A stretch of DNA of 64,000 nucleotides from Octopus vulgaris (taxonomy: Eukaryota), in the NCBI GenBank assembly GCA_951406725.2, contig OX597814.1:125612001-125676000 (forward strand), written 5' to 3'. The notes below the pieces were generated by a model. The model saw only the letters and a list, made by a program, of their open reading frames with translations, did not search any database and had not been told where the DNA came from. Below are positions 8,560 to 64,000 of this stretch, piece after piece. The number at the start of each line of letters is the position of its first letter. The stretch's first letter is position 1. Made by a program: the position numbers and the translations under genes.

Positions 8560-8747
8560 CTATATATATATATACATATATATATATGAGAAAGTTGGTG
8601 TGTGAAAGCACGTGGTTGAATATATAGAAAATAGTAAAAAATGAAAAAACTACAGAAGGCTTGTTTTAAAAGGTAAAAAAATATATATTTGAGTCATTAT
8701 GTCTGAAGAATGTTATAATTTTTTTTCATACAATGACATAGTTTTTG

Positions 8748-8787
8748 AAGAAATGACCGGTTTCGCGTTCAGCTTTTCAAATTTCTT
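8748..8787 (-). ncRNA. Minimal type I hammerhead ribozyme, U3:A8 core variant
   Basis: Minus strand: AAGAAAU UUGAAAA GC-UGAAC-GC GAAA CCG GUC AUUUCUU; 7-bp helix I, palindromic helix III ACCGGU. Confidence 0.7.
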
Positions 8788-9144
8788 ACATCGTTATGTT
8801 TACGTTGAGAAGTGTGAAGAAAGAGTTCCAGATAAGGGGAGGTAATAAGTGATTTCTTCCGGTGTAAGGGAGATAATCGCTTAATACTTTTTGCCTTTTT
8901 TTTTGGAGTGAGTTTCTCTGTATAAGAATGTTGGAATGGTTCAGTTTGGGCTTGTATTTTTCAATGAAGAATGTTTTCTTGTTTAGTCTAATTTGTGTTG
9001 GTGTTCCGATAGCACATTGGTAAAATGGAAAGATTAAAAATTGTGGTAGTAGTTGCTTTGCGCATTTCTCAATGTGCTCACTAAAGGGTATCATTCTGTA
9101 TTCAACTCTTTCTTCACACTTCTCAACGTAAACATAACGATGTA

Positions 9145-9182
9145 AGAAATTTGAAAAGCTAAACGCGAAACCGGTCATTTCT
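9145..9182 (+). ncRNA. Minimal type I hammerhead ribozyme, U3:A8 core variant (inverted copy)
   Basis: AGAAAT TTGAAAA GC-TAAAC-GC GAAA CCG GTC ATTTCT. Confidence 0.7.
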
Positions 9183-9330
9183 CCAAAAATTATGTCATTG
9201 TATGAAAAAAATTTATAACATTCTTCAGACATAATGACTCAAATATATATTTTTTAACCTTTTAAAACAAGCCTTCTGTAGTTTTTTCACCTTTTACTAT
9301 TTTCTATATATATATATATATATATATACT

Positions 9331-10918: not shown

Positions 10919-11325
10919 TAGACAACTCGACTCACTCAACAACTCATTCCGATCACAAATTCACAGAACTGTTGTGTTACTTTCTCATTGTTCCTTCGAC
11001 CACTACTATAACCACATCTTCTCTGGGGCTAACATAAACTTTACATCTTCACTATCCTGGACTATCTCGTTCATTCTCCTCCAATCCTTTCGTGTATTCT
11101 GCTGTGTACTATCTCCCATAATCCGGACTGAACACCAACACAAGCCTTCCTCCTTGGAGTTGCAGCCCTTTGAAACTCCCACCTCATCTGCGGAACGTTT
11201 CATTCCCAGGTCAACCCTGAGAGGGTATGCTTAGGATAAAACGGTTCAAAATATGACCATCGTATCCTTTTTCTTCATATGTGTGTGCGTATGTGTATGT
11301 ATGTATGTATATAAATATATGCGTG

Positions 11326-11391
<66 letters not shown>

Positions 11392-11397
<6 letters not shown>

Positions 11398-12534
11398 AAG
11401 TTTGAATTGTTTCCAAAGGAATTTTTGTCCATTCTTCAGCTAAAACAGCCTCCAGCTCTTGTAGTGATGATGGTGGAGGATATCGACTCCTTACTTGTGT
11501 TTCTAAAATGCACCATAAATGTTCAATAATATTGAGATTTGGGGACTGTGAAGGCCAGATAAGATGTTCAACTTCACTAGAGTGTTCTTCGTGCCGTTCA
11601 GTGACAACTTTAGCTGTGTGAATTGGTGCATTATCATCCTGAAAGATTGCGTTTCCTTCCGGAAACAGTTCCGCAACTGTAGGATGAATTTGATCTGATG
11701 AAATGCTTAGTCTTAACTATTAATTCTTCCATGAAGGGGCCGGCGGATTTCAAAAATATAGCCCCCCAGATCATCACAGATCCTCCTCCATGTTTAACAG
11801 TTGAAAGAAGACAGTCTGGGTCAAATGCTTCTTTTGGCTGTCTCCTGACGTATGCTTGGCCGTTGGTTGGAAATAAGGTAAAGGATGACTCATTCGAGAA
11901 AATAACATTCTTCCACTGCTCTAGGGACCAATTCTGTAGGTTTTTACTCCACTCTAAAAGCTTTGCAACGTTTGTTTTTGAAAGTAGTGATTTTCTGACT
12001 ACAGCCCTCCTGTAAAATCCGGCTCTGTGCAGCTCCCGGCGAACATTTTTTTGTGGAAACTGGGTTCTCGAGGTGGTCATTAAGCTCTACAGTAATTTTG
12101 GGAGTACTTTTGTGATCCTTTCTATCAATTCGTGTAAGAGTCCGACGGTCCCTTTCAGAAAGATTTGGTTTTCTTCCGGAGTTTTATTTCGGCGAGGAGG
12201 TTTTTCCCTCTTTCTCAAAGGTTGTCATTACTTTCGTGACAGTACTTTCTGATACACCAAACATTCCGGCTGTTTTCGTAACGCTAGCGCCTGCCATACG
12301 AGCACCGACAATTTGACCTCTTTGTAAGTCCGATAGATCTGTCATTTTAATGAATTTTTATTACCTTTTTCTGATGATATCTGAAAAGAAACAGCAATTG
12401 TTGCAAAAGATATTAAGCAACACTAATAATAAATAAAAAAAACATAAAATAAACAAGCTTTTGACGGTTTTATAGATATTTCAAAATTTTGATGCTATGA
12501 TGCTGGGTGTTTCCATTATTTTGTCCAACCCCTG
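11392..12534 (-). mobile_element. Tc1-like (DD34E) transposon, 3'-truncated, transposase pseudogene
   Basis: 5' TIR CAGGGGTTGGACAAAATAATGGAAACACC next to TA. ATG at 12345: MTDLSDLQRGQIVGARMAG; FSNES, KHGGGSVMIWG, QDDNAPIH, SPNLNIIE; stops and frameshifts. Confidence 0.92.
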
Positions 12535-16110: not shown

Positions 16111-16526
16111 ATAAAGCAGTTGTATACTGTCAACTTAACGTGACAGTCCCATAAAGGGAACCACACCACCGCTATTTATCCCTAGGAAACATCAACGCTT
16201 CCTGTCTGCCTTGACACATTTCCTGTGTCCTTATGTTTACAAAGGGGAGACAAGCACCCCCATCCAACTAAGTCTGCATCCAGAGACATGTTTCTGAGTC
16301 TTGCTCGTCATCAGTCTGGAGTAGTATGGCTTGCTAGCTGGCTGCAGATACCCGTCTGCAGCCAGCTAGCTGGATGGGGGTGCTTGTCTCCCCTTTGTAA
16401 ACATAAGGACACAGGAAATGTGTCAAGGCCGACAGAAAGCGTTGATGCTTCCTAGGGCTAAATAGCGGGGGTGTGATTCACTTTATGGGACTGTCACGTT
16501 AAGTTGACAGTATACAACTGCTTTAT
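16111..16526. mobile_element. Fold-back element (PLE pLTR-like) with hammerhead in the spacer
   Basis: ~155-bp inverted arms 16111-16270 / ~16368-16526; inner 16-bp hairpin 16333-16370. Confidence 0.85.
16279..16320 (-). ncRNA. Minimal type I hammerhead ribozyme
   Basis: Minus strand: UCCAGA CUGAUGA c-GAG-caaga-CUC-a GAAA CAU GUC UCUGGA; canonical core, 6-bp helix I, palindromic helix III ACAUGU. Confidence 0.85.
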
Positions 16527-25087: not shown

Positions 25088-25169
25088 TCCCGGGTTGATT
25101 CGGGGTTAACCACAGTAAGTAAGGTACTCAATACATAGCAGAGTAAAATTAATTTATTATATAGAAGGA

Positions 25170-25218
25170 GCTTCTACAGGACTAGTACTGTTTCATTCAA
25201 GAGAAATCTTCAGGAAGC
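25170..25218 (-). ncRNA. Type I hammerhead ribozyme
   Basis: Minus strand: GCUUC CUGAAGA uUUC-ucuu-GAAu GAAA CAG-uacuaguc-CU GUA GAAGC. Confidence 0.85.
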
Positions 25219-25253
25219 AGGACTAGTACTGTTTCATTCAAGAGAAATCTTCA

Positions 25254-25307
25254 GGAGCTTCCTGAAGATTTCTCTTGAATGAAACAGTACTAGTCCTGTA
25301 GAACTCC
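25254..25307 (+). ncRNA. Type I hammerhead ribozyme (inverted copy, 1-nt deletion in helix I)
   Basis: GGAGCTTC CTGAAGA TTTCTCTTGAAT GAAA CAGTACTAGTCCT GTA GAACTCC. Confidence 0.8.
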
Positions 25308-25316
25308 TTCTATATA

Positions 25317-25361
<45 letters not shown>

Positions 25362-33948: not shown

Positions 33949-34219
33949 GTAGGTTATGAGAGGTTATGGTGTCAAAAAGACCCAAAGGTGTCAGGTAATG
34001 CTGAGTAAGTGCTATGGACAGACTACAGTTAAGCTCCAGGTTCGGTGATTATGTGAATGAGGTGTCCAACGTAGAAAAAGTTAACAGAATGAGATAAAAA
34101 ATCCAAGGCTGTGAAAGATTTCAGAACATTTATAAAGAGAAGGTCTTACAGCTGTTTCCAGGATCTTTTATATATCCCGGAAACAGCTGTAAGACCTTCT
34201 CTTTATAAATGTTCTGGAA
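33949..34219. mobile_element. Fold-back PLE pLTR remnant with half-hammerheads
   Basis: Begins after (TA)n; arms ~34119-34164 / 34174-34219, each with GAAACAGCTGTAAGAC; CUGANGA lost at the fold. Confidence 0.75.
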
Positions 34220-35998: not shown

Positions 35999-36410
35999 AT
36001 TATTATCAAGTAAGAAAACAGAGAGATCTAATGGGTACAAATTAATTTAATTAATTAACACATTCATCTACAATTCTTTCATTTGACAAACAAAATTAAA
36101 ATTACGAAACATATAAATCTATAATTTTGCATTCATTTTAAATGACTTGTATGGAAACTCATCAGGGTATAAATAAACATGACTATATATTCTGAATATT
36201 CCAAACGGATTATAATGTAATCTTTGTATTGTCCTTTGTACACCCGAATGATTTTCCATACAAGTTATTTGAAATGCAAAATCATATATTTATATGTTTT
36301 GTAGTTTCAATTTTGTTTGTGAAATGAAAGAATTGTAGGTGAATATGTTGATTAATTAATTAATTAATTTGTATCCATTAGATCTCTCTGTTTTCTAACT
36401 CGATAATAAT
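35999..36410. mobile_element. Older fold-back element with degenerate long-helix-II hammerheads
   Basis: ~175-bp imperfect inverted arms. Minus 36065-36170: ACC CTGATGA...GAAA GAATT GTA GATG. Plus 36241-36341: CACC CGAATGA...GAAA GAATT GTA GGTG. Confidence 0.75.
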
Positions 36411-63359: not shown

Positions 63360-63425
<66 letters not shown>

Positions 63426-64000
63426 GGTTAAGTAATTGAGATTCAAGTGAATTCTAAAGAATTCACATGAATATGGTCCTTAACTAGGATGCACCGGAAA
63501 TCTATATGGTGTTAACCATACGACAAGTGGGGTGATTACAAATAGGAAAAAAGCAACAAGAATGGATTAAAATCTCGGTACGATCGTTTCGTACGAGGAC
63601 ATCTTTAATAAGCTACAAAAAATGCAGTGATATGATAGTCACTTTGCTTTTACTCAGACTTTCCTCTACATGATATGGCAGTCACTTTGCCTCTTACTCG
63701 GATTTTCAGAAATTTTGCATGACTGTATCCGAAAATTTCTTCACACAACTTGATTAAAAATTCAATATGAGCTATATGTAGACATGCACAAATTCTGTAA
63801 GTTTAAAACCTTTCATCGGATCTCCATGAATCGAACATTCTTCAATGCAGTTAATCTTACAACCTCTTTTGTATCTACCCCTTTTGATGTTTGGGAATTC
63901 TCTGATGTTTTTTCGGCTGACGAGTACGAGCCATCTGTATTCACTGCATTTGTAGCTTATTAAAGATGTCCTCGTACGAAACGATCGTACCGAGATTTTA
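63426..64000. mobile_element. Fold-back PLE-like element (runs to window edge)
   Basis: Starts after (TA)n; tail 63426-63567; arm 63568-63630 is the near-exact reverse complement of ~63941-64000. Confidence 0.8.
63912..63994 (+). ncRNA. Type I hammerhead ribozyme with extended helix II
   Basis: TTCGG CTGACGA GTACGAG-(40 nt incl. CATCT/AGATG)-CTCGTAC GAAA CGATC GTA CCGAG; canonical core, palindromic helix III ACGATCGT. Confidence 0.88.

Follow-up and report, generated by a model that had tools for sequence, protein, structure and literature searches.

A dimer-type hammerhead motif in a foldback that is very likely a relic, or a mobilised non-coding derivative, of a Penelope-like element

Hammerhead ribozymes of Penelope-like elements (PLEs) are already well described, and the motif reported here is in itself ordinary. 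PLE hammerheads have a long helix II and a palindromic helix III, and show a low activity that requires dimers (PMC4209133; PMC6765202). In the metazoan pseudo-LTR motifs, helix II comprises 7–8 bp, helix III is palindromic, an unpaired base is typically present at the foot of helix II, and motifs lie on opposite strands at distances of 100–700 bp (Cervera and de la Pena, 2014; PMC4209133). PLEs typically leave a 5'-truncated copy with an inverted copy on its 5' side, at (TA)n targets (Craig et al., 2021; PMC8557442). Among the PLEs described in the same source, Hydra and Neptune elements (with a C-terminal GIY-YIG) carry a canonical hammerhead 100–200 nt from the 3' end, long loops II are given for two Selaginella PLE-X motifs that are marked as deviating, and Naiads are described as being without canonical hammerheads, having instead an 'HHR_half_core' with distant core halves (PMC8557442). 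One PLE hammerhead required the protein of its own element, and its cleavage was dispensable for insertion in vitro (PMC11167929). A further related system, the animal non-LTR retrozymes, consists of non-coding, high-copy units with a type I hammerhead and a weak helix III, arranged in head-to-tail arrays of ~300-bp monomers that yield circles (PMC7229834).

The locus analyzed here lies at the end of a 64-kb window (the whole stretch of DNA, 64,000 nt), which consists of microsatellite-rich animal DNA with a SINE content that looks octopus-like. Judged by its core and helices, the segment 63917–63989 on the plus strand is a genuine type I hammerhead with a complete core, for which self-cleavage is predicted. 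Its parts are as follows:

63911–63995, plus strand: type I hammerhead, from core and helix annotation, folding and shuffles; cleavage predicted after A63989
63911–63916 / 63990–63995, plus strand: helix I, 6 bp, one of them G-U
63917–63923, plus strand: core C3-U4-G5-A6-C7-G8-A9, CUGACGA
63924–63930 / 63971–63977, plus strand: helix II, seven Watson-Crick pairs
63932–63936 / 63964–63968, plus strand: helix II extension CAUCU/AGAUG, 5 bp beyond a 1x2 internal loop
63978–63981, plus strand: core GAAA
63981–63988, plus strand: 8-nt palindromic helix III, predicted dimerisation element, from self-duplex energy and a paired loop change
Within this palindrome, plus strand: helix III, 2 bp in total, in which the C15.2-G16.2 pair closes a GAUC loop
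63987–63989, plus strand: GUA triplet and cleavage site

The locus agrees throughout with the hammerhead core consensus (C3U4G5A6N7G8A9 / G12A13A14 / A15.1-U16.1 / H17), and a three-helix layout open at helix I can be drawn, with a helix III of merely 2 bp and with 54 nt separating the two core halves. The metazoan pseudo-LTR motifs share with it the type I topology, the 7-bp helix II, the G10.1-C11.1 pair, the short palindromic helix III, the occurrence as dispersed single copies from truncated elements, and the partner motif a few hundred bases off on the opposite strand; compared with the motifs described in that source, the locus has no unpaired base between A9 and G10.1, an extension brings its helix II to 12 bp, topped by an apical part of 27 nt (30 nt in the family majority), the core halves are separated by 54–57 nt in the family, and no ORF is linked to it (Cervera and de la Pena, 2014; PMC4209133). 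The Hydra and Neptune hammerheads likewise have a position 100–200 nt from the 3' end, a palindromic helix III, a (TA)n target and an inverted 5'-truncated copy, whereas the Hydra loops II, among those listed, are 3–10 nt and the 3' non-coding region of the present family is longer; identity with the Hydra-1_oBim hammerhead was rejected, as the sequence differs (Craig et al., 2021; PMC8557442). With the Naiad 'HHR_half_core' the locus shares the (TA)n target and distant core halves (35–50 nt in Naiad), and, as here, the 3' non-coding region of Naiad_Obim and Naiad_Ovul measures ~1 kb and contains internal repeats (judged by eye); unlike what is described for Naiads, however, the locus hammerhead is complete (PMC8557442). 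Two motif searches, each with 0 matches, and a reading by eye led us to reject identity with the ends of Naiad_Obim, _Ovul, _Omin, _Esco and _Adux (PMC8557442), and a 13-nt match to the Naiad_Omin end is within chance by a rough estimate. The published consensus 3' ends of Naiad_Obim and Naiad_Ovul themselves contain, by eye, a hammerhead-like stretch that is unlisted as a hammerhead in that source, with a helix II of ~6 bp and a long loop, GAAA, and an altered CUGUUGA core (PMC8557442).

The hammerhead is embedded in a foldback with the following features:

63365–63424, no strand: (TA)30 microsatellite, left flank and probable insertion target, from sequence reading
63425–63630, minus strand: inverted, 5'-truncated copy of the element 3' end, 206 nt, made up of the hammerhead 3' half and a 154-nt tail up to the TA run
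63590–63587 and 63579, minus strand: landmarks of the inverted arm, GAAA and site A, respectively
63629–63630, no strand: inversion junction, a 2-nt overlap of arm and sense copy (the arm alignment ends at 63630; contig matches start at 63629)
63628–63707, plus strand: diverged tandem duplication of period 43, intrinsic to the non-coding region of the family
63629–63910, plus strand: sense copy upstream of the ribozyme, non-coding and 5'-truncated, with stops in all three frames
63941–64000, plus strand: right arm within the window, predicted to extend ~143 nt further, to ~64143, and to end at a TA run

More than half of the words of the stretch are contained in 20 of 24 listed sequencing runs (10 studies, four organism codes), one of which may be the source, and family contigs from four runs were aligned to the stretch: X1 and X3 (guessed to be RNA), and X6 and X7 (guessed to be DNA). 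None of the listed runs containing the stretch is on record as RNA, which carries no information about expression. The family is dispersed and present in many copies; X6 contributed 538 aligned family contigs, the summed depth of which is no copy number. Family contigs in all four runs start matching at 63629. Six X1 contigs continue beyond 63630 into the 5' half of the hammerhead, and the truncation point is therefore particular to the locus copy; in other copies the left arm ends at 63485, 63590 and 63620, such that junctions vary. One X3 contig of 592 nt has 494 nt of additional sequence upstream, and another family copy adjoins a TA run (a loose end before 63546 in X1). No contig spans the locus junction at 63630 among the 32 pieces listed (891 more exist), and X7 has zero coverage at 63970–64000, attributed to contigs placed on the left arm. 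A 56-nt piece (63781–63836) has a second version further upstream in other copies, with a different continuation, and thus represents an internal repeat. X1 and X3, which have different organism codes, each include one divergent foldback contig over 63899–63993 with an arm ending at 63590; the variants of these two contigs are largely identical, and they possibly derive from one orthologous transcribed locus.

The inverted arm (63568–63630) aligns with 63941–64000 with 60 of 63 columns identical and one 3-nt gap, which bears out the claim of the sequence-only reading that this arm retains only the 3' half of the hammerhead; the inverted-arm element with a TA flank that it described is likewise recovered on the left side, as (TA)30 at 63365–63424. 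On the left arm the cleavage site is 154 nt from the TA run, placing the hammerhead near the 3' end. By projection from this arm, the right arm is predicted to continue ~143 nt to ~64143 and then to reach a TA run, and an end near 64143 is supported by one X3 contig that switches to arm sequence at 63951 and follows it for 78 nt, past the equivalent of the window edge. A 32-nt near-palindrome (63441–63472) near the 3' end of the element could form a tail hairpin. The same reading had reported a ~35-bp tandem duplication as the mark of the inversion junction. The duplication is present (30 of 37 columns identical, 81%, at period 43), but it does not mark the junction: its copies share 81% identity, against arms that differ by a single 3-nt gap, family contigs carry it at a depth of up to 3382 in X6, and other copies continue upstream into an additional piece of this repeat. 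Since additional sequence of the 43-bp repeat lies upstream of 63629 in other copies, the duplication predates the junction and is part of a long non-coding region.

Rfam identified no hammerhead at its gathering score in the whole window, and its six matches at E<=10 over 63400–64000 (E 0.95–9.5) included no ribozyme and are taken as chance; the miss would be explained by the 54-nt stretch between the core halves and the long helix II insertion. Pattern scans of metagenome contigs and viral contigs gave 0 matches. The lack of an Rfam match could indicate that the locus resembles the hammerhead consensus merely by chance, as could a loose descriptor that matched in 6 of 150 dinucleotide-shuffled windows; however, a motif with a helix I of at least 6 bp and a helix II of at least 7 bp, the lengths observed, occurred in 0/150 shuffled windows, a relaxed descriptor recovered four complete motifs in the 64-kb window, all within foldbacks, compared with 0.02 per shuffled window, and core changes in the DNA-like runs are limited to the free position N7 (among the 40 of 77 variant rows listed). 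A chance match is on this evidence scarcely credible. The isolated 96-nt fold has a z-score of -2.84, with 2/200 shuffles equally good.

A perfect 8-nt palindrome (63981–63988) contains the 2-bp stem of helix III and has a predicted energy of +2.4 kcal/mol as a hairpin versus -10.0 kcal/mol as a self-duplex. In the single-strand ensemble helix III has a pair probability of 0.0, and in the best fold of the monomer core bases pair with 63985–63988. Dimer cleavage of hammerheads is reportedly the subject of work by Lunse et al. in 2017. In one subfamily the loop GAUC is replaced by AAUU with preservation of the palindrome, and the loop bases equivalent to 63983 and 63986 co-vary at equal depth in the four runs (42/42, 30/30, 201/201 and 11490/11525); both palindrome-keeping changes are CpG-type transitions that mark a single subfamily, and hence they count as one event. 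The locus thus combines a short helix III, a palindromic loop and a palindrome kept under change, the features of a dimer-cleaving hammerhead, with one compensating event, and this two-base change would support the dimer model while falling short of proof. The 40 of 77 variant rows listed contain no compensating partner for the U-U mismatch that the AAUU subfamily has in helix I at 63994, or for a change at 63934 in the helix II extension. The 64-kb window contains no second complete sense copy of the family hammerhead.

With the inverted arm in the transcript, the probability of helices I–III drops to 0.0, and enforcing the ribozyme fold costs 54–68 kcal/mol, versus 4–6 kcal/mol without the arm; these energies are predicted at equilibrium, leaving tertiary contacts and Mg2+ out of account. 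For sense-only RNA with the predicted tail, helix I has a probability of 0.06–0.09. The arm lies upstream on the plus strand, so it would already have been made when the ribozyme emerges. Modelled in this way, the locus ribozyme, intact in sequence, is probably silent unless transcription begins between the arms. An efficient monomeric ribozyme, in which the long helix II compensates for the weak helix III and which would cut host transcripts running through the locus, is quite unlikely: in the isolated 96 nt, helices I and II do reach a pair probability near 1, and an axolotl motif whose helix III is likewise 2 bp long reaches 22% cleavage after 1 h in monomeric form (PMC7229834), but helix III has a probability of 0.0 here, the core pairs with 63985–63988, and the arm, being transcribed first, removes the fold at a cost of 54–68 kcal/mol. 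Of what the sequence-only reading had claimed for the ribozyme, the intact canonical CUGACGA/GAAA core, the 7-bp helix II (63924–63930/63971–63977) with its CATCT/AGATG extension (63932–63936/63964–63968) and the GUA triplet ending at 63989 (63987–63989) are all confirmed by the annotation of core and helices. Its description as the best-preserved ribozyme holds insofar as this is the sole one of the four motifs in the window with a C3-G8 core and a helix II foot without extra bases; the working fitness that the description implied does not hold, as helix III is dimer-dependent, the arm abolishes helices I–III, and alternative folds dominate in silico for read-through RNA at the locus.

We conclude that the locus is very likely a relic of a high-copy PLE, or of a non-coding derivative moved by PLE enzymes, whose 3' end bears a hammerhead of the dimer type, and that the foldback probably silences this ribozyme. 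The locus and other copies show 5' truncation with an adjacent inverted 3' copy, as in PLEs, and insertion at (TA)n, as in Neptune, Hydra and Naiad, is seen at the left flank and in one further copy. The putative membership of the family in the PLEs is based on three features of layout and on a neighbouring foldback of another family, and a non-autonomous derivative of a PLE may fit as well. The complete core recalls Hydra and Neptune, and the gap and the long repeated 3' region recall Naiad. The locus copy, which is truncated, has no RT or GIY-YIG coding part in 63425–64000: Pfam gave no match for two open stretches of the 63629–63910 region, and tblastn of 54 PLE-like proteins against 63400–64000 gave no match at E<10. 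Two coding readings were rejected, one across 63631–63960 (no Pfam match, no tblastn match) and one beginning at a start codon within the core, like that of anole Poseidon (PMC11167929), which would meet a stop within 13 codons. Among the joints listed, in a window that ends at 64000, there is no pseudo-LTR direct repeat or partial tandem. The family may already carry a name in Repbase or Dfam.

The non-coding nature, type I hammerhead and high copy number of the family could also describe a dispersed monomer of a non-LTR retrozyme, in which a tandem unit is cut, circularised and re-inserted by PLE enzymes. Retrozymes have been argued to derive from PLE pseudo-LTRs (preprint 10.64898/2026.07.22.740005), and one X3 joint leads from 63836 back to 63629 across unknown letters. 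We regard this origin as very unlikely, given that a joint from tail to unit start is present in 0/6 of those listed, that the layout is inverted, that head-to-tail hammerhead repeats are not present at the locus, and that the non-coding region, with the X3 contig included, spans at least ~1 kb, compared with ~300-bp retrozyme monomers in head-to-tail arrays (PMC7229834).

The PLE relic reading draws on a parallel in the window, the foldback at 8620–9311, which is a PLE relic by sequence, is flanked by TA and has 208-nt arms that are 97% alike. Each of its arms has a U3-A8 variant hammerhead with a 2-bp helix II (8780–8755, minus strand; 9151–9176, plus strand), and its spacer (~9103–8933, minus strand) retains the C-terminal part of a PLE GIY-YIG endonuclease resembling that of Neptune. 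The 64-residue reading of this spacer has 54 protein relatives, of which the six scanned all have GIY-YIG and two also have RVT_1; the relatives have the DKG motif and CX4CxxC linker known from Neptune/Nematis, and the best score of the peptide in the ESM Atlas, 0.79, was uninformative. As these 54 relatives give no match at E<10 in 63400–64000, the foldback at 8620–9311 belongs to another family. Foldbacks with traces of hammerheads number six in the 64 kb. The one at 16111–16526, of a third family, has 160-nt arms and a complete hammerhead in its spacer (16314–16285, minus strand), with an extra C and A at the helix II foot and a palindromic helix III. A short TA-flanked foldback at 25152–25322 has CUGAAGAU...UGAA cores like those in Hydra-element listings, and a ~41-bp tandem duplication in its left arm (both by eye). 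Hammerhead 3' halves with a palindromic helix III are present in both arms of a foldback at 34119–34219, and a decayed CUGAUGA core in a foldback at 35999–36410.

Inverted arms and TA flanks are also typical of Tc1/mariner-type MITEs, and the window does contain mariner/Tc1 remnants. The locus could accordingly be read as a MITE or foldback DNA transposon whose TIRs happen to contain part of a hammerhead, but this is highly improbable: the inner arm ends vary between copies in place of fixed, shared arms, full-length ribozymes extend beyond 63630 in other copies, and the sister foldback carries a PLE endonuclease end. The decayed DNA transposon frames lie at 1089–1556 and 11246–12086, with Mos1-type HTH_48 (E 9.7e-21) and DDE_3 (E 2.9e-11).

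Based on the PLE literature, we posit that the GIY-YIG endonuclease would have nicked the (TA)n tract, with reverse transcription beginning at the 3' end of the element. The anatomy of the locus shows that both products were copied short, giving a 5'-truncated sense copy head to head with a shorter inverted copy. Located ~150 nt before the 3' end of the parent element, the hammerhead would cut a tandem precursor RNA as a double hammerhead in which the palindromic helix III joins the two motifs, possibly assisted by protein. A read-through transcript of the locus is computed to form a long hairpin that would remove the hammerhead fold; the ribozyme would then be largely inactive, except where a transcript begins between the arms and encounters a partner RNA. 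At the family level, there are indications that such hairpins may be A-to-I edited, core adenosines included.

The indication comes from the variants in family contigs, where A>G or T>C changes constitute 70 of 108 variant places in the RNA-like runs (X1 and X3) versus 16 of 55 in the DNA-like runs (X7 and X6), or 27/49 and 43/59 versus 9/30 and 7/25 per run. Fisher's test gives a p of 2.6e-5 pooled and 0.05 to 0.0002 pairwise, values that are optimistic because variant places recur between runs and are non-independent. The number of C>T plus G>A changes is stable at 12–15 in all four runs. Of the 40 listed rows, 17 are exclusive or nearly so to the RNA-like runs, comprising 14 A>G or T>C changes and three of other kinds, the latter carried by one or two divergent contigs. 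At all 14 RNA-only A>G/T>C sites the base 5' of the edited A is U or A (background 0.58), and candidate sites occur on both strands, as expected from a hairpin. The loose ends of X1 and X3 contigs have further T>C runs. Candidate edited sites include core A15.1, the cleavage-site A17 and helix II A11.2; for A15.1, the variant depth is 50.9/111.8 in X1 and 13.7/67.5 in X3, versus 0/427.9 and 0/56042.6 in the DNA-like runs. Inosine at position 15.1 shifts triplet specificity.

The run types are guessed, the contigs are strandless, the RNA-like and DNA-like runs come from different animals and the signal is family-wide, not specific to this copy; the A>G/T>C excess is a lead for ADAR (A-to-I) editing of family transcripts. 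ADAR hyper-editing produces A>G clusters on inverted repeats with depletion of upstream G, octopus is the top hyper-editor, and Penelope is heavily edited in lizard (Porath et al., 2017; PMC5625713). The clusters on inverted repeats and the G-poor upstream context are the same here; ribozymes are no part of that account as far as it was available (PMC5625713), whereas the candidate sites in this family include hammerhead core bases. Inosine has been tested in a hammerhead at the middle base of the triplet, as opposed to 15.1 or 17, in work that demonstrates merely that editing is able to block a hammerhead (PMC3923133). A literature search, thin in subscription journals, found no paper on the editing of PLE hammerhead cores or on this family. 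The simplest reading is that the editing is a by-product, since editing of repeat hairpins is common. A more elaborate reading, which we hold only tentatively and consider unlikely, is that the inverted PLE copy acts as a built-in antisense switch, whereby dsRNA would trap the hammerhead and ADAR would rewrite core adenosines, silencing or retuning thousands of ribozymes. If this were true, a family with a helix II insertion long enough for Rfam and published descriptors to miss it would be a candidate for the 'missing' Naiad-type hammerheads.

That this family was missed by Rfam, probably owing to its long helix II, suggests that animal ribozyme counts are too low. The natural two-base change that preserves the helix III palindrome would back the dimer model from sequence variation. 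The apparent A-to-I editing at core positions bears on whether PLE hammerheads cut in vivo, and also on what keeps thousands of dispersed copies from cutting host transcripts.
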